From NCBI RefSeq assembly GCF_000020025.1, contig NC_010628.1, forward strand, positions 1,110,001-1,142,000: a stretch of 32,000 nucleotides of DNA. The letters are read 5' to 3'. The stretch comes from Nostoc punctiforme PCC 73102. GTDB taxonomy: Bacteria; Cyanobacteriota; Cyanobacteriia; Cyanobacteriales; Nostocaceae. This document shows, piece by piece, positions 4,420 through 31,813 of the stretch. Each line of letters starts with the position of its first letter. Within the stretch, counting starts at the first letter, position 1. Position numbers and translations under genes: made by a program. The notes below the pieces were generated by a model, which searched no databases, was not told the origin of the DNA, and worked only from the letters and a program-made list of their open reading frames with translations.

Positions 4420-5499
4420 GTGCTAAATTTGTCTCAAAATGGGTGTTCTGTGTGGGTTGCTTCTTCGAGCGAAGGGCTGCTAACGCCGACTGCTGTTGCC
4501 CTTGGCAAGTTTGATGGTGTTCATCTTGGTCATCAAAGGGTAATTCAACCAGTTTTGCACCCTTGCGATCGCTTGTCAGTAGCCAGTAGTCCCCAGTCAA
4601 AGGAAAATCAACAACAAACAAATCAAGAATATATCTACTCAACAGTTGTCACCTTTGACCCCCATCCACAGGAGTTTTTCACGGGGCAACCCCGGACTTT
4701 GTTAACGCCACTGGATGAAAAAGTCCAACAATTGCGATCGCTTGGGGTAGAACAACTAGTATTACTACCCTTTGATAAAGAATTATCTGCTTTGACCCCC
4801 GAAGAATTCGTCCAAAAAATTCTCGTCCAGCAACTGCAATGCCAGCGAATTAGCATCGGGCAGGATTTTTGTTTTGGCGAAAAACGCAGTGGCACTGCTA
4901 AAGATTTGCAATTAATCGCCGCCAAACACAATATCCCCGTTACCATCGTTCCCTTACAAACTTATACAGGTGACTCGCCCACCCAAAGCAGTTGCGTCAG
5001 TACTAATCCAACTCAAGATGCCCGCATTAGCACTTCATTGATCCGCCAAACCCTTGAACAAGGCGACATCGAAAACGCAAATTTACTACTAGGTCGCCCC
5101 TATACTCTCTTTGGTGTTGTGGTTCAAGGTCAACAATTGGGTAGAACAATTGGCTTTCCCACCGCCAATCTCGAACTACCAAAAGAAAAGTTTTTGCCCC
5201 GCCAAGGAGTTTACGCTGTCCGTGTTTTTACTCTTAGTGAAACATCAAATGCTGCTTCTAGTGAGAGCTTGGGCGTAATGAACATCGGCAACCGCCCAAC
5301 TGTAAATGGTACTTATTCATCTGCGGAAGTACATTTATTCGATTGGTCTGGTGATTTGTATGGCAAAAAACTGGCTATAGAATTAGTTAAATTTTTGCGC
5401 CCTGAACAAAAATTCCCTTCTCTAGAAGCCTTAAAAACACAAATTCAACTTGACTGCGTTGTTGCTAAAGAAGTTTTGAGTGCTGAGTGGGAACAATAG
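4420..5499 (+). CDS. ribF: Bifunctional riboflavin kinase / FMN adenylyltransferase
   Basis: It carries the FAD-synthetase motif ALGKFDGVHLGHQ, then TFDPHP, and a C-terminal riboflavin-kinase region (GRTIGFPTANL, GVMNIGNRPT, EVHLFDW). The likely true start is GTG 4450 (VWVASS...). A Gln/Ser-rich segment (SVASSPQSKENQQQTNQEY) looks like a lineage-specific insertion. Confidence 0.93.
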   Translation: MLNLSQNGCSVWVASSSEGLLTPTAVALGKFDGVHLGHQRVIQPVLHPCDRLSVASSPQSKENQQQTNQEYIYSTVVTFDPHPQEFFTGQPRTLLTPLDEKVQQLRSLGVEQLVLLPFDKELSALTPEEFVQKILVQQLQCQRISIGQDFCFGEKRSGTAKDLQLIAAKHNIPVTIVPLQTYTGDSPTQSSCVSTNPTQDARISTSLIRQTLEQGDIENANLLLGRPYTLFGVVVQGQQLGRTIGFPTANLELPKEKFLPRQGVYAVRVFTLSETSNAASSESLGVMNIGNRPTVNGTYSSAEVHLFDWSGDLYGKKLAIELVKFLRPEQKFPSLEALKTQIQLDCVVAKEVLSAEWEQ

Positions 5500-5586: not shown

Positions 5587-6495
5587 ATGAGAGAAAAAAT
5601 TGACGCTTTAACACAAAATCTGGCTCTTACCATTGTTGGCAAAGCTGAAGCAATACGCTTAGTGCTAGTAGCCTTGCTAGGTGGTGGTCATGCCCTGCTA
5701 GAAGATGTTCCTGGTGTTGGTAAAACCCTACTCGCTAAATCTCTAGCTCGTTCACTGGATGGTAAGTTTCAACGCCTACAATGTACCCCCGATTTACTGC
5801 CAACTGATATTACTGGCACCAATATCTGGAACCCAAAAAGCGGCGAATTTACTTTTCTCCCTGGGCCAGTCTTTACGAATATTCTCTTAGCTGACGAAAT
5901 TAACCGCGCTACACCCCGCACTCAGTCAGCTTTGCTGGAAGTTATGGAGGAACATCAGGTAACAGTCGATGGTGTCTCTCGTCTAGTTCCCCAGCCCTTC
6001 TTTGTCATCGCTACTCAAAACCCGATCGAGTATCAAGGTACTTTTCCCCTGCCGGAAGCGCAAATGGATCGGTTCATGTTGTCGCTGAGTTTGGGCTATC
6101 CTTCGGAGGCAGAAGAACTCCTGATGCTGCAAAATCTCCAAAATGGTATTAAGGTTGGTGATTTGCAGCCTTGTATTACCTTGGCAGAAGTACAGGAATT
6201 GCGTTACATCTGCTCTCAAGTAAAAGTAACAACCTCCTTGCAACAGTACATCCTCGAATTGGTGCGGGCAACACGCCAAGATGAGGAAATCGCTCTTGGT
6301 GTCAGTCCGCGTGGCACATTAGCATTACAACGGGCTGCCCAAGCGTTAGCTTTTCTATTAGGGCGTGATTATGCCATTCCCGATGATGTGAAATTTCTCG
6401 TCCCTCACGTTCTTTGCCATCGCCTTATTCCTAGAGGAGGACGCAACGCTAGAACTGTTGTTGAGCGATTATTGCGATCGGTTTCTATTCCTTAA
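5587..6495 (+). CDS. MoxR-family AAA+ ATPase
   Basis: It has Walker A (EDVPGVGKT), Walker B (LLADEINRA) and the ATQNPIEYQGTFPLPEAQMDRF sensor region typical of MoxR/RavA-type ATPases. The tracked ORF starts at 5545, but those 14 codons translate the heptamer repeat. ATG 5587 (MREKIDALTQNL) is the probable start. Confidence 0.9.
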   Translation: MREKIDALTQNLALTIVGKAEAIRLVLVALLGGGHALLEDVPGVGKTLLAKSLARSLDGKFQRLQCTPDLLPTDITGTNIWNPKSGEFTFLPGPVFTNILLADEINRATPRTQSALLEVMEEHQVTVDGVSRLVPQPFFVIATQNPIEYQGTFPLPEAQMDRFMLSLSLGYPSEAEELLMLQNLQNGIKVGDLQPCITLAEVQELRYICSQVKVTTSLQQYILELVRATRQDEEIALGVSPRGTLALQRAAQALAFLLGRDYAIPDDVKFLVPHVLCHRLIPRGGRNARTVVERLLRSVSIP

Positions 6496-6686
6496 TGTAA
6501 GAGTGAATATAAACTTTAGATTCTTTATCCTGCTTCAATTTGTACGTGTTAAAGTGAGTTCTATGCCTCTGAAATTTTGTGCTTGTTCTCTTAGTTATGT
6601 TCTACTTTATTAAGTACATACATTCACAAAATGTACACTATTTGGAAATGTCATAAATGACCGATAATAGTCATGTTAACACTGAG

Positions 6687-6998
6687 CTAATACAGGGTTA
6701 TCTGATATTTTTCTACCAGTGTAGACAATATTGAACGGGCAAGAGAGCCATTATAGTTCCTGTCAGCCAACCATTTTTTACCTTTATCTGAGATGACACA
6801 TTTGCCGCTTAATGGACTCTTGTCATTGATAACTTTCAATAATCCCAAATCTGATAATTCTCTCACTACTTGCGAAATATATTCATGACCAGCTAGTGGT
6901 TCACCTGTTAACATCATTAAGCGGTCGAGCTTGTACCAGTGAACTCCTTGATCACCTTTTAGATCAAGAAGTTCAAGAATGAGAGCATAATCCTTTTC
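6687..6998 (-). CDS. Hypothetical protein, possibly a winged-helix DNA-binding fold
   Basis: The tracked ORF is 6687..7064. The internal ATG at 6998 (MEKDYALILELLDL...) avoids overlap with the divergent antitoxin gene. The gene lies in an AT-rich islet. The fold guess rests only on the helix-rich pattern VVRELSDLGLLKV and is weak. Confidence 0.45.
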   Translation of the reverse strand, partial: EKDYALILELLDLKGDQGVHWYKLDRLMMLTGEPLAGHEYISQVVRELSDLGLLKVINDKSPLSGKCVISDKGKKWLADRNYNGSLARSILSTLVEKYQITLY

Positions 6999-7025
6999 CA
7001 TAGATTCTAATGAGGTAGACAACAG

Positions 7026-7283
7026 ATGAAAGCGATCGAAGTTACCGGTAGGATTGACTCTCAAGGAAACCTAGTTTTAGATGAGCCGATTCAGGGAAGC
7101 ACTTATCCTCATCAGGTTCGGGTAATTGTGTTGGTTCCAGAACCAGCAGAAGCAGAAGAGGTTGACCCTGATGATACACCCGTTGAAGAGATTAAAGCTA
7201 GCTTGAGGAGAGTCTTACAGCAAGCAAAAGCTGGTCAAACTAGACCACTTAGTGAACTATGGGACAGGATTGATGCAGAGTGA
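7026..7283 (+). CDS. Putative type II antitoxin
   Basis: The 85-aa ORF has an acidic Pro/Glu-rich middle (PEPAEAEEVDPDDTPVEE). It overlaps the downstream toxin-like frame by 11 nt (toxin ATG 7273, antitoxin TGA 7281..7283). Confidence 0.6.
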   Translation: MKAIEVTGRIDSQGNLVLDEPIQGSTYPHQVRVIVLVPEPAEAEEVDPDDTPVEEIKASLRRVLQQAKAGQTRPLSELWDRIDAE

Positions 7284-7635
7284 TAATGCGGTTTCAATTC
7301 GATTTTCCGATGAGTTTTAGCAGGAACTTTACAGACTATCAAAGAGATTCCGCAATATTCGCTCTGATGTTCAACCGATTATTGAGCAATTACAACAAAG
7401 GAATTTTGTAGGAGATCGCATTGCGGGCATTGGTGAGGAGTATGTTGTTTATAAGGTGAGAGTTCGCAACAGTAGTATCCAAAAAGATAAGAGTGCTGGA
7501 TACCGATTGATTTATCAAGTTGAATCACCTACAAATATTTTGCTACTAACGATTTATTCCAAATCTGACCGAGAAGATATTGGTGCGAATGAAATCCGAG
7601 ATATTATGGCTGATTTTTTTAGTGATTCAGGTTAA
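7273..7635 (+). pseudogene. RelE/ParE-superfamily toxin interrupted by an in-frame TAG at codon 16 (7318..7320)
   Basis: Hand translation: MQSDNAVSIRFSDEF*QELYRLSKRFRNIRSDVQPIIEQLQQRNFVGDRIAGIGEEYVVYKVRVRNSSIQKDKSAGYRLIYQVESPTNILLLTIYSKSDREDIGANEIRDIMADFFSDSG. The KVR...GKSAGYRLIY...LLTIYSK pattern is RelE/ParE-like. The frame is open for 104 codons after the TAG but has no plausible restart codon. Confidence 0.65.
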
Positions 7636-7782
7636 AACTGCTAAGAGATTTTTCCTTGCAATGTTGAGAGATGCAGACGCAGAAGGGCTTACCGATAGGC
7701 ATTGCTATATTACTACTGACAACGCTGGGTAAGTCCTATGATTAGCACAAGCGCCACTTCTAAATATCTGGGAATGTGAGGA

Positions 7783-8355
7783 ATGTCAATTTTTGTTAAG
7801 CGCAAAATCCGCGATGGCGATCGCCAAGGTTTACAGCAAAGTGCCGAACGTGAATTCAAACGCCAATTTTTCGGTTTACTTCTGGTAATTGTAACGTGGA
7901 GCCTAGCTATGGGTTGGCTTCTAGCCTTGGCAACTAACGCTCACAGTGCTACTCCTCCCGTCGAAATTGGTACTGTTGACGTAGTACCTGCACAGTACCA
8001 ACTTGGGCAAGAGCTGTATTTGGAAAACTGCTCCACCTGCCACATTGCCTTACCACCAGCCGTTTTACCCACCCAAACTTGGAAAAATCTCCTGCAAGAC
8101 TCGCAGCACTACGGCGCACAACTACAGCCTTTAGTCGATCCGCCGCGCATTTTGGTGTGGAAATATCTTTCAACTTTCTCGCGTGTGCAGCGAGACGACG
8201 AAGAAACACCCTATCGCCTCAGTAACTCACGTTATTTCAAAGCTTTACATCCAGGAGTTAAGTTACCACGTCCAGTCCAGCTTGGCAGTTGTGTCAGCTG
8301 TCATCCTAGCGCTACTGACTACAATTTCCGCCGCCTGACAGCAGAATGGAAGTGA
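7783..8355 (+). CDS. Diheme c-type cytochrome with N-terminal membrane anchor/signal
   Basis: It has two CxxCH heme-binding motifs (CSTCH, CVSCH) and a hydrophobic N-terminal segment (FFGLLLVIVTWSLAMGWLLALA). Confidence 0.8.
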   Translation: MSIFVKRKIRDGDRQGLQQSAEREFKRQFFGLLLVIVTWSLAMGWLLALATNAHSATPPVEIGTVDVVPAQYQLGQELYLENCSTCHIALPPAVLPTQTWKNLLQDSQHYGAQLQPLVDPPRILVWKYLSTFSRVQRDDEETPYRLSNSRYFKALHPGVKLPRPVQLGSCVSCHPSATDYNFRRLTAEWK

Positions 8356-8358
8356 GGA

Positions 8359-8386
8359 GTAGAGACGCGATTAATCGTGTCTCTAC
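8359..8386 (+). terminator. Near-perfect 28-nt palindrome hairpin downstream of the cytochrome gene
   Basis: GTAGAGACGCGATTAATCGTGTCTCTAC forms about 12 bp of stem (one G-T wobble) around a central TTAA. It lacks a clear U-tract, so it may be a dispersed Nostoc-type hairpin repeat rather than a classic terminator. Confidence 0.45.
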
Positions 8387-8674
8387 AGGAGTTAGGAGTT
8401 GAAAAAATTCATAACTTATAACTCATAACTCTATTCCCCCACTCCTTCTCTGGCCCCATCTGGGGGCAAAATGATACTATGAAGAAAGACTAAATATAAG
8501 ATAAGAGTTAAAACCAATCAGTTTACTAAATGATTGGCTAGTTTTTCTCCTGTTTTTGAGGTAATTTTCATTTGACACCCATCCACAACCAAGACGGTTG
8601 GTTTGGGTTAAATGTTTATAATCAATGCCGAACCTTTAATCCCCATCCCCCTTGATTCAGTTCTATAATCTGCC

Positions 8675-11467
8675 ATGCTAAAACTTTTGTTGGGCGACCC
8701 CAACGCTCGTAAGCTTAAAAAATACCAACCTTCTGTTACTGAAATTAACCTTTTAGAGGAAGAAATTAAGGTTCTTTCCGATGAGGAGCTAAAAGGTAAA
8801 ACTGCCGAATTTAAACAACGACTCGCCAAAGGTGAAGCCCTGGATGACCTTTTGCCAGAAGCTTACGCCGTTGTTCGGGAAGCAGGACGGCGAGTGTTAG
8901 GCTTGCGGCACTTTGATGTCCAACTCCTTGGCGGTATCATTTTGCACGTAGGGCAAATTGCCGAAATGAAAACTGGTGAGGGTAAAACGCTCGTAGCAAC
9001 CTTACCAAGTTATTTAAATGCCTTGACTGGTAAAGGTGTACATGTCATTACCGTGAACGATTACCTGGCTCGTCGGGATGCTGAATGGATGGGACAGGTG
9101 CATCGGTTCTTGGGGTTGAGTGTGGGGCTAATCCAGTCAAGCATGACTCCCAGTGAACGCCAGAAGAACTACGATTGCGATATCACTTATGTCACCAACA
9201 GCGAAGTCGGCTTTGACTACCTGCGGGATAACATGGCGACATCAATGGCAGATGTGGTCCAACGTCCGTTCAATTATTGCGTAATTGACGAGGTAGACTC
9301 AATTTTAATTGATGAGGCGCGGACACCTCTGATTATTTCTGGGCAGGTGGAAAGACCTACAGAAAAGTATCTGCAAGCGGCTGAAATAGCATTCACACTC
9401 AAAAAAGACGAACATTATGATGTAGATGAAAAAGCTCGTAACGTGCTATTGACAGATGAAGGCTTTGCGGAAGCCGAAAATCTTTTGGGAGTCACAGATT
9501 TATTTGACCCAGAAGATCCTTGGGCGCACTTCGTTTTCAATGCAATTAAAGCCAAAGAACTTTTCCTTAAGGATGTAAATTACATCGTCCGCAATGGGGA
9601 AGTAGTAATTGTGGATGAATTTACCGGTCGGGTGTTACCTGGACGGCGTTGGAGTGATGGACTACACCAAGCTATTGAAGCCAAAGAACACGAAGAGATT
9701 CAGCCAGAAACTCAAACTCTAGCGACAATTACTTATCAAAATCTGTTCTTGCTGTATCCAAAACTCGGTGGAATGACCGGAACAGCAAAAACGGAAGAAC
9801 CAGAATTTGAAAAAATTTACAAACTGGAAGTTGCGGTAATCCCTACCAACCGTGACAGAAGACGCGAAGACTTGTCTGATATGGTCTTTAAGACAGAAGC
9901 AGGTAAGTGGGGTGCGATCGCCAGAGAATGTGCGGAAATGCACGAACTTGGTAGACCTGTGTTGGTGGGAACCACTAGTGTCGAAAAATCCGAACTTCTC
10001 AGCCGATTGCTGAAGCAGCTAGAGATTCCCCACGAATTACTCAACGCCAGACCGGAAAACGTCGAGCGTGAAGCGGAAATTGTCGCCCAAGCTGGACGGA
10101 AAGGTGCTGTTACTATCGCTACTAACATGGCTGGTAGAGGTACAGACATCATCTTGGGTGGTAACTCCGAATACATGGCACGTTTGAAGCTGCGGGAATA
10201 TTTTATGCCCCGCATCGTCATGCCAGAAGATGAAGATAGCTTTGGCGTTCAAAGACCAGCCGGATTGCCTACAGGACATGGTGGTGGTCAAGGCTTTGTC
10301 CCTGGCAAAAAAGTCAAAACTTGGCGGGCTTCACCAGAAATTTTCCCCACCCAACTGACAAAAGAAACAGAGAAACTACTTAAAGATGCAGTAGAAATTG
10401 CAGTCCGTGAGTATGGCGATCGCAGTTTACCGGAACTCGAAGCTGAAGACAAGGTAGCTGTGGCTGCCGAAAAAGCTCCTATCGACGACCCTGTGATTCT
10501 GAAATTGCGGGAAGCTTACAACCGGGTTAAACAGGAATACGAACAATTTACTACCCGCGAACATGATGAGGTAGTAGGAATCGGTGGTTTGCACGTAATT
10601 GGTACAGAACGCCACGAATCGCGGCGGATTGATAACCAGTTGCGGGGACGTGCAGGTAGACAAGGCGACCCTGGAACCACGAGATTCTTCCTCAGCTTAG
10701 AGGATAACCTACTGCGGATTTTTGGTGGCGATCGCGTTGCTGGGTTAATGAATGCTTTCCAAGTGGAAGAAGATATGCCCATCGAGTCTGGGATGCTTAC
10801 CCGCAGTTTGGAAGGCGCACAGAAAAAAGTCGAAACCTACTACTATGACATCCGTAAGCAGGTATTTGAGTATGACGAGGTGATGAACAATCAACGTCGT
10901 GCTATTTACGCCGAACGCCGTCGGGTTTTAGAAGGTCAAGATTTGAAAGAACAGGTAATCAAGTACGCTGAAAAAACGATGGATGACATCGTTGACTACT
11001 ACATCAACATAGATTTACCCTCCGAAGAGTGGGAGTTAGAAAAGTTGGTTGAGAAAGTCAAAGAATTCGTCTATCTACTAGCAGACTTGCAGCCAAATCA
11101 ATTAGAAGATATGACAGTCGGCGAGATTAAAGCTTTCCTCCATGAACAGGTGCGAATTGCTTACGACCTCAAAGAAGCGCAAATTGACCAAGTTCAACCA
11201 GGACTGATGCGCCAAGCTGAACGTTTCTTTATCTTGCAACGCATTGATACCCTGTGGCGGGAACACCTGCAACAAATGGATGCCTTACGTGAATCGGTGG
11301 GATTACGTGGTTACGGGCAAAAAGATCCACTAATTGAGTATAAGAGCGAGGGTTACGAACTCTTCTTGGATATGATGGTCAACATCCGCCGAGATGTGGT
11401 TTACTCGTTGTTTATGTTCCAACCGCAGCCACAGCAAATGATGCAGGCATCATCAGAGATGGTGTAA
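8675..11467 (+). CDS. secA: Preprotein translocase ATPase SecA
   Basis: The 930-aa ORF starts [10 protein letters not shown] and contains [14 protein letters not shown] (Walker A), [19 protein letters not shown] (DEAD motor), TGMTGTA and [25 protein letters not shown]. Confidence 0.98.
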
Positions 11468-25721: not shown

Positions 25722-27482
25722 GTGTCCCACATCACTCAGAGGGCGGTTCACTGTATAAATCCTGATTGTCAACGTCCTTATCCCCAACCTTGGGGAAACA
25801 AATTCTGCAACAGCTGTGGCACACCGCTAGAGTTGTTAGACCGCTATGTTCCACTTCAGCCATTAGGTTCGGGAGGATTTGCTCAAATTTACACGGTTTG
25901 GGATGAAAAAACTCAAACAGAGAAAGTGCTGAAAGTGTTGGTAGAAGATTCACCAAAAGCACTGGAATTATTTACCCAAGAGGCCGCGGTTTTATCTAGT
26001 TTGCAGCATCCAGGTGTCCCCGCAGTCGATACTGAAGGGTATTTTCAGGTACAACTGTTTAACCCCAAGCCGCACCAACTACCTTGTCTGGTAATGGAAA
26101 AAATCAATGGACGGACTTTAGAGGAGATATTAAAAAAGTTTCCCCAAGGGTGTCCAGAGAACTTGGTTATCAATTGGTTTGCCCAAGCTGTAGAGATTTT
26201 ACAAGAATTACACAAACGTCAGATTATTCACCGGGATATTAAACCTTCTAATTTAATGCTGGGCACATCTTCGCCCACTGTCAGCCTACCTCAAGGGCAA
26301 ATAGAAGGCGATCGCCTGGTACTAATTGATTTTGGTGGGGCAAAGCAATTTAGCCCCTCTAAGCTGCGTTCTCAGTCGAGTTCTACCCGATTATTTTCTT
26401 CTGGTTACAGTCCACCAGAACAAGTGAGTGGAAGTATTGTCGGGCCAAGTGCCGATTTTTATGCCCTTGGTCGAACGATGATTGAACTGCTAACAGGCAA
26501 ATACCCGCTAGAGTTGGAAGATCAGCAAACTGGGAAACTTGTATGGCGCACTGCGGTAAATGTCAATCCGCAATTAGCAGATTTGCTGGATGAGATGGTG
26601 CAAGAGGATGTGCGATCGCGTCCAGCAAATGCAGCTATGATTCAAAAACGGTTGGCGAAGATTTCTCAACCATTACCGCCGCCAGGATTATTTGCCCAAC
26701 TGCGAGATCGGGTTAAGCAAGCTTCAACGCAAGTTTCCCAGAGATTTACACTGCTAATCCAAGCTATTGAACAAGTTTTAGCGAACTTTAGCCAAGCTGT
26801 AACTAAAACCGTTGTTTTTATCGCTCAAACAATCATCAAAATTTTCCAAGCTTGTTTGGCGACGATTTGGGCGATGATTTTGGCTTATGTTGGCGCTTGT
26901 TTTGGTGCGATCGCTGGTTTTATTTTGGCATATCACACCAACTTGGGGCGTTGGGTTGTGGAATTTATTTCGAGTCAGCTAAACCAATTAGTCCCAAATA
27001 CTCAAACCGTCTTTGGGGCAGATATTTTGGTATTCATCGCCGCAGGCTGGGGAACCGCTTGGGGACTGACAGCATCCGGGTGTTTTGGTCAACGGCGGCG
27101 CTTTTTAGTAGCATCGCTGATGGGCATGATTAGCTACGGCTTTGGCTGGTTCATTTTGCAATTAATCACACCAAAAGACAGTGGTGAAGGCTTAGTTGCA
27201 GTGATTTTAGTAGCAGCTTGCCTACTCACATTGAGCTTAGGTCTTCGCAGCCATCACATAGTGTACGCCGTGTTAGCTGCCTTTGGTAGCGCGATCGCCT
27301 ACGCATTTTTGATTCTTTTGAGGTTAGCACCTCCCATCTTCCAATTTTCTAGTCAACCAGCCTGGTCAGAGTTACAGTTACCTCTGATTTTTTTTGGTTC
27401 TGTAGGCTTCTTTATCAGCTTCTGGTTAGGAGTAAGTTACTACCTAATTGTCCCTGGATTGCGCCTTTTAGGGTGGCGATGA
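25722..27482 (+). CDS. Ser/Thr protein kinase with N-terminal zinc ribbon and C-terminal polytopic membrane domain
   Basis: The start is GTG. The zinc ribbon reads CINPDC...CNSCG. Kinase motifs are GSGGFAQIY, VLKVL, HRDIKPSNLML, DFGGAK and SPPEQ. The last ~230 residues hold several hydrophobic helices. Confidence 0.9.
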   Translation: MSHITQRAVHCINPDCQRPYPQPWGNKFCNSCGTPLELLDRYVPLQPLGSGGFAQIYTVWDEKTQTEKVLKVLVEDSPKALELFTQEAAVLSSLQHPGVPAVDTEGYFQVQLFNPKPHQLPCLVMEKINGRTLEEILKKFPQGCPENLVINWFAQAVEILQELHKRQIIHRDIKPSNLMLGTSSPTVSLPQGQIEGDRLVLIDFGGAKQFSPSKLRSQSSSTRLFSSGYSPPEQVSGSIVGPSADFYALGRTMIELLTGKYPLELEDQQTGKLVWRTAVNVNPQLADLLDEMVQEDVRSRPANAAMIQKRLAKISQPLPPPGLFAQLRDRVKQASTQVSQRFTLLIQAIEQVLANFSQAVTKTVVFIAQTIIKIFQACLATIWAMILAYVGACFGAIAGFILAYHTNLGRWVVEFISSQLNQLVPNTQTVFGADILVFIAAGWGTAWGLTASGCFGQRRRFLVASLMGMISYGFGWFILQLITPKDSGEGLVAVILVAACLLTLSLGLRSHHIVYAVLAAFGSAIAYAFLILLRLAPPIFQFSSQPAWSELQLPLIFFGSVGFFISFWLGVSYYLIVPGLRLLGWR

Positions 27483-27666: not shown

Positions 27667-28047
27667 ATGGAACCTATTTCTATGATTATTGCTGCTTTAG
27701 GTGCTGGTGCGATCGCAGCTACTAAGGATACCGCAGGAACAGCAGTTAAAGATGCCTATCAGGGGTTGAAAACCTTGATTAAGAAGAAGTTTGAAAGTGA
27801 ACCAAAAGCACAAATGGTTCTGGAAGAACACGAAACAGACCCTGAAACCTATGAAGCACCACTTAAAAAGAAATTAGCTGAAGCTGGTGCTGAAAAAGAT
27901 GCAGAAATTATTAAGTTAGCCCAAGAGTTACTGAAACAGGCAAAACCTGATGAGTCAGCAGCAGGTAAATACAACACAGTGTTTCAAGGAGAAGTAAAAG
28001 GGATTCAGGTGGGCGATCACAACAAACAAGAAAACACATTTGGCTAA
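27667..28047 (+). CDS. Bell/HeLo-like small effector candidate with a C-terminal amyloid-signalling-type motif
   Basis: The 126-aa ORF has a Gly/Ala-rich hydrophobic N-terminus (MEPISMIIAALGAGAIAATKD), a helical Lys/Glu-rich body (AVKDAYQGLKTLIKKKF...) and the tail KYNTVFQGEVKGIQVGDHNKQENTF. That tail matches the N-terminus of the next gene. The downstream ORF starts 19 nt after the stop. Confidence 0.72.
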   Translation: MEPISMIIAALGAGAIAATKDTAGTAVKDAYQGLKTLIKKKFESEPKAQMVLEEHETDPETYEAPLKKKLAEAGAEKDAEIIKLAQELLKQAKPDESAAGKYNTVFQGEVKGIQVGDHNKQENTFG

Positions 28048-28066
28048 CAGCCACTGGAGTATTTAG

Positions 28067-31000
28067 ATGGCTGAAGAGAATTCCAACTACAGTTCAAGGT
28101 TTGAAAATGAAGTAAAGAGTGCTGTAGTTGGTGAAAAAAACATTATCTACAACTACTTTTACTATAGAGAAGAAGCAAGAGTAGAACCTGTTGATTCTAC
28201 CGACGCTGCTGATGAATATCTCCCTTGTCCTTATCGGGGGTTGTTTCATTTTGGCCCCAATGATGCGGATGTTTTCTGTGGGCGGGAAATATTTATCGAA
28301 GAACTTTATAGTGCAACTAAAACCAATAATTTTATTCCGGTGCTAGGTGCATCAGGAAGCGGTAAATCTTCGGTGGTATTAGCGGGATTAGTCCCTAAGT
28401 TACAAACAGCAGGTCATTGGCAGTTTACTCACTTTCGTCCTGGTTCTGACCCTTTCCATGCTCTAGCTTTAGCTCTTGTTCCTCTTTATACACCTAATTT
28501 AGATCAAACAGACCAAATTGCCCAAGCCCGAAAGATGGCTGGTTACTTGCAAGATGGTTCTGTTATTCTCTTAGATGTTTTTGCTAAAATTCAGCAAAAT
28601 CACCCTAATCATCGGGTACTACTGATTGCTGACCAATTTGAAGAAATTTACACACTCTGTAACAATCAAGAAATTCGCCGTAAGTTTCTCGACTGCTTAT
28701 TAGCCAGTTTAGTAACTCCTACTTCCCTGACTTCATCAGCTACGGTGTTAGTGACAACGATGCGGGCAGATTTTTTGGGAAATGCTCTCTCCTATCGTCC
28801 CTTTGCTGATGTCTTGCAAAATGCTGACGTGAAACTGGGGCCGATGAATCGGGAGGAACTAACAGAAGTCATTGGAAAACCTGCCCAAAAATTTGGGGTG
28901 ACATTTGCAGACGGACTGGTAGAACGCATTCTGGATGATGTGGAAAACCAACCGGGAAATTTACCTTTGCTAGAGTTTGCTTTAACAGAGTTGTGGAATA
29001 AGCGAACAGGTAAACAATTAACTCACAAAATCTATGAAGAAATTGGTCAAGTAGAAGGTGCGTTAGCTCGTCATGCGGATGAGAAATATGGCAACTTGAC
29101 AGATGATGAGAAGGAAAAAGTGCGGCGGATTTTTATTCAATTGGTGCGTCCGGGTGAGGGAGCAGAAGATACAAGACGCATAGCGATGAAAGCGCAATTG
29201 GGGGAACAAAGCTGGTCTTTGGTAAAAAAATTAGCTGATGCTCGGTTGGTGGTGACAAGTCGCAATCTTAGCAGTCAAGAAACAGTAGAAGTAGTCCATG
29301 AAGCTCTGATTCGCAATTGGGGAGAACTGCGACAATGGATGAATACAAACCGCGTTTTTAGAGCTTGGCAAGAGCGATTGCGAGCAGCAAAGGGACAATG
29401 GGAAGCAACAAATAAAGATTCGGGGTCATTGTTGCGGGGTGCAGCATTAGCAGAAGCAGAAGAAAAACTGAAGGAACGCCCAGAAGACTTAATTGATGAA
29501 CAAGAATTTATCGAGCAGAGTATTAAAGAAGGAAATCGCCTTAAACAAGTTGAAGCAGCCCGCAGAAAGCGCGAAATCAGAACCGCCTGGGCAATTGCGG
29601 CAGGTTCAGTGGTGGCGGTGGTAATTAGCAGTGGATTGGGTTTGACGGCATGGAATCAGACGAAGCAGGCACAACTCAATCAAGCTGAATCTCTGAGTAG
29701 ATATTCCTTATCTCTAATTAATGAACATAAAGACTTAGAAGCTTTCGTCACAGCAATAAAAGCAGGAAAAATCCTGCAAAGCCAACACACAACTAAACTA
29801 GAAACTTTCAATGCTTTGCAGACAGTTCTGGTTCAGGGAAGAGAACGAAACCGCTTAGAAGGGCATCAAAGCGCAGTCAATAGTGTGAGTTTCAGCCCGG
29901 ACGGCAAAACCATCGCCACGGCATCACAAGACAAGACAGCGCGGTTGTGGAACCTGCAAGGGCAACTGCTGCAAGAATTCAAAGGGTATCAAGGCACAGT
30001 CTTAAGTGTGAGTTTCAGCCCGGATGGCAAAACCATCGCCACGGCATCATCTGACAAGACAGCGCGGTTGTGGAACCTGCAAGGTAAACTGCTGCAAGAA
30101 TTCAGAGGGCATCGCAGTGGTAGAGGTATGAGTTTCAGCCCGGACGGCAAAACCATCGCCACGGCATCAGAAGACGGGACAACGCGGTTGTGGAACCTGC
30201 AAGGGCAACTGCTGCAAGAATTCAAAGGGCATCAAGGCAGTGACGAAGGTGTGAGTTTCAGCCCGGACGGCAAAACCATCGCCACGGCATCACAAGACAA
30301 GACAGCGCGGTTGTGGAACCTGCAAGGGCAACTGCTGCAAGAATTCAAAGGGCATCAAGGCGAAGTCTCAAGTGTGAGTTTCAGCCCGGACGGCAAAACC
30401 ATCGCCACGGCATCATCTGACAAGACAGCGCGGTTGTGGAACCTGCAAGGGCAACTGCTGCAAGAATTCAAAGGGCATCAACGCGGTGTCAATAGTGTGA
30501 GTTTCAGCCTGGACGGCAAAACCATCGCTACGGCATCATCTGACAAGACAGCGCGGTTGTGGAACCTGCAAGGGCAACTGCTGCAAGAATTCAAAGGGCA
30601 TCAAGGCCTAGTCTTAAGTGTGAGTTTCAGCCCGGACGGCAAAACCATCGCTACGTCATCAGATGACAAGACAGCGCGGTTGTGGAACCTGCAAAGGCAA
30701 CTGCTGCAAGAATTCAAAGGGCATCAAGGCGAAGTCTCAAGTGTGAGTTTCAGCCCGGACGGCAAAACCATCGCCACGGCATCAGAAGACGGGACAGCGC
30801 AGTTGTGGAACCTGCAAGGGCAACTGCTGCAAGAATTCAAAGGGCATCGCAGTGGTAGAGGTGTGAGTTTCAGCCCGGACGGCAAAACCATCGCCACGGC
30901 ATCAGCTGACAGGACAGCGCAGTTGTGGAACCTGCAAGGGCAACTGCTGCAAGAGTTCAAAGGGCATCAAAACGTAGTCTCAAGTGTGAGTTTCAGCCCG

Positions 31001-31702
31001 GACGGCAAAACTATCGCCACGGCATCCTGGGACTGCACAGCGCGGTTGTGGAACCTGCAAGGGCAACTGCTGCAAGAATTCAAAGGGCATCAAGGCGCAG
31101 TCAATAGTGTGAGTTTCAGCCCGGACGGCAAAACCATCGCCACGGCATCAGTTGACGAGACAGCGCGGTTGTGGAACCTGCAAGGGCAACTGCTGCAAGA
31201 ATTCAAAGGGCATCAAAGCGGTGTCAATAGTGCGAAGTTCAGCGCAGTCAATAGTGTGAGTTTCAGCCCGGACGGCAAAACCATCGCCACGGCATCATCT
31301 GACAACACAGCGCAGTTGTGGAACTTGCAAGGGCAACTGCTGCAAGAATTCAAAGGGCATCAAGGCCTAGTCTTAAGTGTGAGTTTCAGCCCGGACGGCA
31401 AAACCATCGCCACGGCATCATCTGACAACACAGCGCGGTTGTGGAACCTGCAAGGGCAACTGTTGCAAGAATTCAAAGGGCATCAACGCGGTGTCAATAG
31501 TGTGAGTTTCAGCCCGGATGGCAAAACCATCGCCACGGCATCTTATGACAAGACTATTAAACTCTGGGATCTAGATTTACACCCTTTAATGAGGCGCAGT
31601 TGTGATTCGGTACGCGATTATTTAACCTATAATCCTTTAAAAGATAATCCTGATGTCAGCGAGAATGACAGGCACTTGTGCGACGGTATTGGCAGAAAGT
31701 AG
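28067..31702 (+). CDS. NLR-like STAND (NACHT-type) P-loop NTPase with N-terminal signalling motif, one predicted TM helix and 14 WD40 repeats
   Basis: GGAG lies at 28056..28059. The N-terminal motif spans residues 7-31. CPYRGLFHF...FCGRE leads in to Walker A GASGSGKS (28346..28369) and Walker B-like [10 protein letters not shown]. The hydrophobic segment [24 protein letters not shown] maps to 29582..29653. The 14 WD40 units run from residue 599. Confidence 0.93.
29861..31575 (+). repeat. Coding tandem repeat: 14 WD40 units of 123 bp (two of 120 bp, one of 147 bp), near-identical at nucleotide level
   Basis: The string gtgagtttcagc recurs at 29885, 30008, 30128 (as atgagtttcagc), 30251 and onward. 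The block ttgtggaacctgcaagggcaactgctgcaagaattcaaagggcatc recurs almost verbatim at 13 unit junctions. Confidence 0.95.
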
Positions 31703-31732: not shown

Positions 31733-31813
31733 GGGGGCAGGGGGCAGAGGAGCAGGGGAGCAGGGGAGCAGAGGAGAGTTTTTGTACAAGTTCTTTCCCC
31801 TCTGCTCCTCTGC
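31733..31813. repeat. G-rich / C-rich inverted-repeat element downstream of the NLR gene (same family as 16527..16640)
   Basis: The G-rich arm is gggggcagggggcagaggagcaggggagcaggggagcagaggagag and the C-rich arm is tttcccctctgctcctctgc. They share a 12-nt exact complement (GCAGAGGAGCAG/CTGCTCCTCTGC). Confidence 0.6.

Follow-up and report, generated by a model that had tools for sequence, protein, structure and literature searches.

A probable BASS3 amyloid-signalling pair of a Bell-domain effector and an nSTAND1-WD40 sensor in Nostoc punctiforme PCC 73102

Two adjacent genes in the window, a stretch of 32,000 nucleotides of Nostoc punctiforme PCC 73102 (contig NC_010628.1, positions 1,110,001 to 1,142,000), encode proteins that carry similar short motifs at the termini facing each other, which raised the question of whether they act together and by what kind of signal. 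The answer reached here is that they very probably form a two-gene cell-death module, the Nostoc BASS3 pair, in which an NLR-like sensor signals to an effector by amyloid templating. The effector gene (27667..28047, + strand, 126 aa) and the nSTAND1-WD40 sensor gene (28067..31702, + strand, 1211 aa; from the ORF and Pfam) were identical, without a single sequence difference on look-up, to ACC79696.1/WP_012407718.1 and ACC79697.1/WP_012407719.1, respectively. Both genes are collinear on the same strand and separated by a spacer of 19 bp (28048..28066), which holds a GGAG (28056..28059) 7 nt 5' of the NTPase ATG and a TAG (28064..28066) in frame immediately before this ATG, so the NTPase ORF could not start farther upstream. 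A gap of 18-23 bp between the effector and NTPase genes was also found in most related loci, and the two genes are probably co-transcribed; scans for promoters and terminators at the locus gave nothing better than shuffles.

The effector-side motif (KYNTVFQGEVKGIQVGDHNKQENTF, with the core GIQVGDHNKQENTF) covers residues 101-125 of 126 (27967..28041, + strand), and the NLR-side motif, in which Val replaces Gln, covers residues 7-31 of 1211 (28085..28159, + strand). BASS3 pairs as given by Dyrka et al. 2020 have one motif ending a Bell-domain protein and the other beginning an NLR-like protein of a neighbouring, mostly collinear gene, and the window genes show this layout. The coordinates and sequences of both 25-residue segments, their terminal placement and their gap-free match with ten identities (Y, F, E, V, K, V, G, N, N, F; BLOSUM62 score 44) were exactly as the original prediction had given them. 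Shuffling, which it had proposed as a check, placed the match above chance in the fixed register and in any register. Composition-preserving shuffles of both 25-mers in fixed register scored -17.7 on average (sd 11.2; observed z 5.5), and neither the observed score nor the identity count was reached in any of 200,000 shuffles. When the last 45 residues of the effector were compared with the first 45 of the NTPase in any register, the best ungapped segment scored 44 vs a shuffle mean of 19.1, with an empirical p of 2e-4 (2 in 10,000) and a Gumbel p of 1e-4. The effector-side motif was kept in more than 100 homologues, and in 36 related pairs the downstream NTPase still carried the NLR-side motif at its N-terminus.

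A BASS3 HMM, rebuilt on the rows that Table S2 of Dyrka et al. 2020 gives for this family, served to assign the motif. This model matched the effector tail at residues 111-125 with 22-26 bits, while the rebuilt models of BASS1, 4, 5, 6, 7, 8 and 9 (the set left out BASS2 and BASS10) gave no signal on either terminus. For the NLR the BASS3 score was 0.7-4.4 bits with the full protein and 9.5 bits with the first 45 residues, which is sub-threshold and marks a divergent copy, with model positions 10-21 lying on residues 20-31 in the same register as in the effector. Related NLRs that retained the Gln (MNHAEFQGEVKGAQIGDHNIIYNYF) matched the BASS3 HMM at an E-value of about 0.003, which supports, at the level of sequence, a link between the NLR copy of the window and the BASS3 family. 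The model was also run on 2440 ORFs taken from 80 related loci; at E<0.01, 45 matches fell in Bell proteins (44 of them at the C-terminus) and six at N-termini of downstream ORFs, and the remaining matches were just a few with E of at least 3.

A relation of BASS3 to RHIM and PP has been described, and BASS3 was classed as RHIM/PP-like in the 2020 preprint (bioRxiv 10.1101/2020.01.06.895854). The G-hydrophobic-Q-hydrophobic-G core expected from this relation was found in the effector (GIQVG), and was not found in the NLR (SAVVG), which lacks the core Gln. The Gln is also absent in published BASS3 NLR-side rows, namely AINLG, GMVIG and GAMWG (Dyrka et al. 2020). Pfam RHIM (PF12721) gave 14.2 bits on KGIQVGDHNK of the effector tail, below its cut-off of 20, and had no match on the NLR N-terminus; the effector tail has a high content of G, N, Q and V. 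Of a divergent BASS3 pair and a separate motif family, the two options left, the former is favoured by the HMM scan, the bridging NLRs and the published identity of the pair, and membership of the motif pair in BASS3 is supported from the sequences.

In fact, the Nostoc BASS3 pair of Dyrka et al. 2020 (bioRxiv 10.1101/2020.01.06.895854) is ACC79696.1/ACC79697.1. The fragments cloned in that work were ACC79696.1(94-126) and ACC79697.1(1-38), and both 25-mers lie inside them. Both fragments showed prion behaviour in Podospora and co-aggregation, the NLR-side fragment converted the Bell-side one, and in vitro fibrils were obtained from the Bell-side fragment; the prion and cross-seeding assays used a fungal host and overexpressed fusions. 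ACC79697.1 was reported slightly under the BASS3 profile threshold (E 0.1). The strings FQGEV, YNYF and QENKF were not found in Table S2 of the preprint, and a reading of the pair as an unreported subfamily, based on this absence, was overturned by the methods section, according to which the pair was chosen by accession and deliberately omitted from Table S2. The finding is a correct rediscovery: the pair had been described as a BASS3 amyloid-signalling pair in 2020, with experimental tests; since it was one of three BASS3 examples characterised then, the window adds no new system. What is added here to the published pair is the Pfam nSTAND1 class of the sensor, a widespread family, and sister pairs with other motif classes.

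Co-variation of the two termini, another check that had been proposed, was followed in 65 related pairs of a Bell protein and a downstream NTPase, and the motif class switched in both partners together. The median HSP score was 64 for cognate vs 27 for non-cognate combinations. Ten motif classes were distinguished among these pairs, the cognate partner was the best one in nine of the ten, and the observed cognate sum was reached in 0 of 200,000 permutations over the classes. About ten unrelated classes, each mirrored in the partner, require selection for matching. A search of the 2020 BASS table for strings characteristic of five of them had no match. The mutually non-matching classes of the cyanobacterial Bell/nSTAND1-WD40 family could serve as an orthogonal "address code", insulating many NLR-to-effector channels in one cell. 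The conserved Val/Ala in place of Gln in the NLR-side copy could mean a functional asymmetry, making this copy a poor nucleator when alone that fires only when oligomerised. Taken jointly, the address code and the asymmetry form a tentative proposal, rather doubtful as it stands. The swapping of motifs among relatives is a natural experiment which could be used for testing the specificity of amyloid signalling.

The effector starts with a hydrophobic helix (MEPISMIIAALGAGAIAA; 27667..27720, + strand) bearing an acidic residue at position 2-3, as the "MEPIS" region requires. The MEPIS motif was named and mutated in a preprint (10.1101/2024.11.07.622273), and this helix is the predicted pore-lining helix of Bell/Hell/Bab domains. 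In the AF2 model (pTM 0.71) residues 3-98 formed a bundle of five helices (3-18, 25-41, 46-57, 59-73 and 79-92, plus 94-98), with a mean pLDDT of about 90 across residues 1-100, in agreement with the alpha-helical bundle of about 100 aa and five helices that is characteristic of Bell/HetE-N, followed by a tail disordered over residues 103-126 (pLDDT <50 at 109-121). Precomputed annotation gave an unmarked PF20701 HetE-N match for this exact effector and a PF20701 match in 119 of 120 homologues among the matches listed. A local search with PF20701.3 gave no match to the window effector at E <=0.1, and 20.9 bits vs a cut-off of 25 on the homologue P0055. Foldseek of the Bell model against the PDB returned no significant match and no solved homologue, and phmmer against PDB sequences returned nothing below E 0.2; for this reason a membrane-targeting role of the effector is putative, drawn from its N-terminal motif and by analogy. 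PADLOC had no model for the effector, and NCBIfam gave a single irrelevant sub-threshold match.

The sensor contains an nSTAND1 STAND NTPase domain at residues 55-452 (28229..29422, + strand; PF20703, E 1.4e-121), which scored 18.6 bits with Pfam NACHT, below the cut-off of 26.7, and had no match with NB-ARC. A STAND NTPase in the centre and C-terminal repeats give this 1211-aa protein an NLR-like architecture, so the label "NLR" used in the original prediction holds for the architecture, and the Pfam class is nSTAND1 and neither NACHT nor NB-ARC. This clade was outside the target of the original NACHT/NB-ARC screen for BASS motifs. The C-terminal array (29859..31554, + strand) is made of 14 WD40 repeats of 41 aa (123 bp) each with high internal conservation, seen as 14 stretches with Pfam WD40 and by TRF as period 123, 11.1 copies and 88% matches. 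Variation among the repeats was concentrated at five positions per unit, and the array is presumably the ligand-sensing domain. For this protein PADLOC matched nothing but a generic repeat model, and NCBIfam gave repeat-driven matches only, far below their cut-offs.

With these parts, a ligand bound to the WD40 propellers would lead to NTP-dependent oligomerisation of the nSTAND1 sensor, by which the N-terminal 30-residue motifs would be gathered and adopt a cross-beta fold. They would then template the normally disordered C-terminal motif of the effector (GIQVGD-N-Q-N-F), and conversion of this tail would free the N-terminal hydrophobic MEPIS helix from the five-helix Bell bundle. HET-S/NWD2 and Bab/Agp are the analogues from which we infer the trigger, the nucleation driven by oligomerisation, the attack on the membrane and the role in Nostoc. 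Amyloid templating from an NLR to a pore-forming effector connects the cell-death signalling of bacteria, fungi and animals through BASS3, PP and RHIM.

HET-S/NWD2 of Podospora anserina is similar in its adjacent genes, in a WD40 NLR with an N-terminal motif, in a helical effector that forms pores and bears the matching amyloid motif at its C-terminus, and in the greater divergence of the motif copy on the NLR side. It differs in being eukaryotic, in having the HRAM motif with two pseudorepeats whereas the Nostoc pair has a single BASS3 copy, in its HeLo effector domain vs Bell, and in its NACHT NTPase vs nSTAND1. In the Bab/Agp system of E. coli ECOR25, a Bell-type protein activated via a common amyloid motif executes abortive infection, with membrane damage and cell death as the outcome (10.1101/2024.11.07.622273). 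Its motif is BASS11 instead of BASS3, its Babybell domain has about 80 aa vs about 100 aa in the Nostoc effector, and its antiphage function was demonstrated, whereas that of the Nostoc pair is a candidate one by analogy. The mammalian RHIM (RIPK1/RIPK3 necrosome) and the fungal PP motif have their G-[IV]-Q-[IV]-G core in common with the GIQVG of the effector, but differ from the Nostoc pair in the flanks, the partners (kinases) and the organisms, and the NLR-side copy is without Gln.

The names nSTAND1 and HetE-N come from another framework, that of NTPase conflict systems coupled by effector-associated domains (EADs), in which a short module is likewise present on the NTPase and on an adjacent effector and homotypic adaptor binding, not amyloid templating, was proposed (Kaur et al. 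2020, 2021; PMC7159879, PMC8195603). The shared segment might accordingly be a small folded or peptide homotypic adaptor which recruits the effector by ordinary binding, an improbable explanation for which there are four points: nSTAND1 itself was defined in the EAD framework, the paired EADs of Kaur et al. have the same arrangement, effector residues 73-121 gave a weak match to Pfam EAD10 (PF19954, E 0.024, 15.1 bits), and the paralogue-type homologue P0055 reached 21.1 bits. However, both scores are under the cut-off of 24.1, the NTPase N-terminus had no EAD10 match, and AF2 predicted no fold in the effector tail. The composition of this tail and its BASS3 profile match fit amyloid motifs, and the published fibrils in vitro and prion conversion in Podospora also argue for templating. 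EAD coupling and amyloid coupling may be two names for one principle.

The likeness of the two motifs might also be a relic without a signalling role, if the NTPase gene had acquired its 5' end through duplication of the upstream gene's 3' end or through gene conversion from it. Some related NLR N-termini (MNHAEFQGEVKGAQIGD..., in loci L006, L018, L022, L027 and L035) come close to a copy of the Bell side, which suggests sequence exchange between both ends. In the window, however, the two motif-coding segments agree at just 42 of 75 nucleotides and use different codons at three of the ten shared residues, so the likeness is at the protein level, and recent gene conversion or a DNA repeat is rejected for the window. 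Both termini have kept the motif in Nostocales, Chroococcales and Leptolyngbyaceae alike, and this, with the mirroring of unrelated motif classes between partners, makes such a relic very unlikely. Chance or compositional likeness of two low-complexity termini would have in its favour that N, G, V, K and E abound in both segments and that just 25 residues are matched, at 40% identity. It has next to no probability left and is counted as refuted by the shuffles and by the co-variation, the pairing recurring in related loci.

The surroundings of the locus are housekeeping genes, with no obvious defence island. A Ser/Thr kinase gene upstream was considered as a further member of the system and rejected; it adjoins the pair in only 6 of 71 loci, all of close Nostoc relatives, and is thus taken as local synteny.

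A small ORF of 126 aa (27667..28047, + strand) was followed after 19 bp by a large ORF of 1211 aa (28067..31702, + strand) in the ORF call. By exact-sequence look-up they were ACC79696.1/WP_012407718.1 and ACC79697.1/WP_012407719.1 of Nostoc punctiforme PCC 73102, and the upstream kinase was ACC79695.1 of the same strain; two public contigs bearing the gene were exact substrings of the window. An in-frame TAG stands immediately 5' of the ATG of the large ORF, so no start further upstream is possible, and GGAG lies 7 nt upstream of this ATG. Residues 101-125 of the small protein, the effector (KYNTVFQGEVKGIQVGDHNKQENTF), could be aligned without gaps to residues 7-31 of the NTPase with 10 of 25 identities, which reproduced exactly the coordinates, residues and identities of the original prediction.

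The motif pair is real and its BASS3 reading is right, but the pair is already known rather than new, since both proteins were described, with experimental tests, in 2020. ACC79696.1(94-126) and ACC79697.1(1-38) were among the cloned fragments of Dyrka et al. 2020 (bioRxiv 10.1101/2020.01.06.895854), who explain that these BASS3 sequences were omitted from their Table S2. In that preprint, the Nostoc punctiforme BASS3 pair behaved as prion-forming domains in Podospora, both motifs co-aggregated, the Bell-side (effector) motif was converted by the NLR-side motif, and the Bell-side motif formed fibrils in vitro. As these assays used the same segments, most of the peptide and cross-seeding tests that had been proposed for the pair are already done.

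For the small protein, the N-terminus was MEPISMIIAALGAGAIAA, and AlphaFold2 (75-sequence alignment) gave a confident five-helix bundle at residues 3-98 (pLDDT about 90, pTM 0.71), with the tail unstructured from about residue 103 (pLDDT <50 at 109-121). The precomputed Pfam annotation was HetE-N (PF20701) for the exact protein and 119 of 120 listed homologues, and the local Pfam scan gave only sub-threshold HetE-N and EAD10 matches. Neither sequence search nor Foldseek revealed a matching solved structure, and no PADLOC or NCBIfam model covered the protein. In the literature such a helical domain of about 100 aa, in which the first helix is hydrophobic and position 2-3 holds an acidic residue, is named Bell, and its conserved N-terminus is the 'MEPIS' motif region common to Bab, Hell and some antiphage NLRs (bioRxiv 10.1101/2024.11.07.622273). 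A non-amyloid homotypic adaptor of the EAD type that Kaur et al. describe (PMC7159879, PMC8195603) would be compatible with the gene architecture and with the weak EAD10 match on the effector, but this reading is improbable, since that match falls short of the threshold and has no counterpart on the NLR, the effector tail has no predicted fold, and the Bell-side fragment was observed to form fibrils.

The sensor is an nSTAND1 protein, not NACHT or NB-ARC, with the STAND NTPase domain at residues 55-452 (PF20703, E 1.4e-121) and a sub-threshold Pfam NACHT match (18.6 bits vs a cut-off of 26.7). C-terminal to this domain were 14 WD40 repeats (29859..31554), each 41 aa long; the DNA beneath them is a tandem repeat with a unit of 123 bp and 88% matches. 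Amino-acid differences between the repeats cluster at about five positions in each, with the patterns GHQ-x-x-V-x-S and AS-x-D-x-T; the array resembles those of fungal NLRs, whose repeats combine high internal conservation with hypervariable sites.

Motif families were compared on both termini with profile HMMs, which were rebuilt using the motif alignments that Dyrka et al. 2020 give in their Table S2. The BASS3 model gave 22.7-26.5 bits on residues 111-125 of the effector tail, whereas the BASS1, 4, 5, 6, 7, 8 and 9 models gave at most 3 bits on either terminus. On the first 45 residues of the NLR the BASS3 model reached only 9.5 bits, with model positions 10-21 on residues 20-31, which is the matching register. 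Published BASS3 rows from the NLR side also lack the core Gln (AINLG, GMVIG and GAMWG; Dyrka et al. 2020), and Pfam RHIM matched the effector tail weakly (14.2 bits vs a cut-off of 20). On these scores, the register and the Gln-less rows, the effector motif GIQVG is classed as a clear BASS3 and the NLR motif SAVVG as its divergent BASS3 partner. Of the two choices in the original prediction, the divergent BASS3 pair is favoured over a separate family.

Homologues of the small protein numbered 405 at E <=0.001, nearly all cyanobacterial, and most had the tail GKYNTVFQGEVKG[IAV]Q[VI]GD.N.Q.N.F. In 65 of the 80 related genomic loci retrieved, the Bell gene was followed by an NTPase homologue, usually 16-23 bp downstream. 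Among the 2440 ORFs of these loci, the BASS3 HMM (E<0.01) found 45 Bell proteins (44 of them C-terminally) and the N-termini of six downstream ORFs, five being NTPases; the few remaining matches were noise (E >=3). The BASS3-type NLR N-terminus read ..F...[VA]K[GS][AFV][VAQ][VI]G[EDN].N[IT], then further residues. Val or Ala was the common state at the Gln position, and on these alignments the Gln-to-Val asymmetry of the NLR side is conserved. The NLRs of loci L006, L018, L022, L027 and L035 retain the core Gln as near-copies of the Bell side (MNHAEFQGEVKGAQIGDHNIIYNYF), which links the SAVVG variant to canonical BASS3. These NLRs start with MNH[AT]EFQGEVKGAQ[IV]GD.NIIYNYF, shorter than the window N-terminus (from 1737, 5402, 5414, 5414 and 5415, respectively), which suggests that the NLR 5' end was occasionally homogenised with, or replaced by, the Bell 3' end.

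The Bell domain also carried very different tails, for example GDVFGVAGTNSGTVNI, GDVKGIVGDISGG.INQ (GDVKGIVGDISGGxINQ), YAATSGSGNASI, INIGQGAKGIIGQTVTGATI and NFQGFYGENLGTV, and each time the downstream nSTAND1-WD40 protein opened with the matching sequence. About 10 motif classes were found in Bell/HetE-N and nSTAND1-WD40 pairs, each mirrored at the partner N-terminus; the characteristic strings of five do not occur in Table S2 of the 2020 preprint, the only table compared. Representatives included L022, L071, L028, L040, L061, L042, L055, L077 and L080 (Bell ORF near 5001-5400 plus the next ORF). Over 65 pairs the median HSP was 64 for cognate vs 27 for non-cognate combinations, 9 of the representatives of the 10 motif classes paired best with their cognate NLR, and the observed sum was not attained in any of 200,000 permutations of the partners, so the correlated conservation asked for in the original prediction was found across related pairs. 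A neutral duplication remnant, which would leave the shared motif without a role, is very unlikely, because the motif is deeply conserved and about ten classes are swapped in mirrored fashion, both of which contradict it. The coding DNA of the two segments was identical at only 42 of 75 positions and 3 of the 10 shared residues used different codons, so the resemblance is maintained at the protein level. A chance match has a negligible probability and was ruled out by shuffling: in fixed register none of 200,000 shuffles of both 25-mers reached the observed score or identity (z 5.5), and when the 45-residue termini were compared in all registers, their best ungapped segment had p ~1e-4 to 2e-4.

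Some loci departed from the usual arrangement. In L014 (5001-7619) and L034 (5001-8855) the Bell domain lay within one long ORF (872 and 1284 aa), ending in a sequence like the window NLR C-terminus and in WD40-type sequence, respectively; these could be 'all-in-one' Bell-NLR fusions, or assembly or frameshift artefacts. In L031 the Bell gene was intact (5001-5393), and the NLR ORF (5666-8878) began 272 bp downstream at MFHFGPND without the N-terminal motif; this partner may have decayed, or its assembly may be faulty.

Amyloid signalling as in fungal NWD2/HET-S is the best-supported model for the pair, whose architecture, motif pairing and co-variation were observed directly. The WD40 repeats would sense a ligand and the nSTAND1 NTPase would oligomerise; the clustered NLR N-terminal motifs would then nucleate a cross-beta fold, which would serve as the template for the effector tail, and the MEPIS helix, freed from the Bell bundle, would attack the membrane. 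Amyloid and prion behaviour and cross-seeding have been shown in the literature, with heterologous hosts and in vitro. By analogy with HET-S and E. coli Bab/Agp (BASS11) we infer the trigger, oligomerisation of the sensor, damage to the membrane and a physiological role in Nostoc. In E. coli abortive infection by Bab/Agp, a Bell-type protein is activated through amyloid signalling, and the 2024 preprint states that what bacterial Bell/NLR pairs do has still to be elucidated (bioRxiv 10.1101/2024.11.07.622273).

The neighbours were housekeeping genes (pheS, surE, ribF, MoxR ATPase, secA, penicillin amidase, RRM protein and rpsU), and the locus is outside any obvious defence island. Directly upstream of the pair is the Ser/Thr kinase ACC79695.1 (586 aa, 25722..27482), whose N-terminus resembles a zinc ribbon and whose long, hydrophobic C-terminal half probably crosses the membrane several times. 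Just 6 of 71 related loci keep the kinase next to the pair, and it therefore probably lies outside the module. Promoter and terminator scans were uninformative. A perfect 5-bp inverted repeat, TGGCT-AAC-AGCCA (28041..28053), spans the stop codon of the effector and lies 14 nt upstream of the NLR start; it could be a small hairpin acting on translational coupling, or chance. About 30 bp past the NLR stop codon is a short G-rich tandem repeat (31733..31776) with GGGGCAGGGG-like units of 8, 16 and 24 bp.
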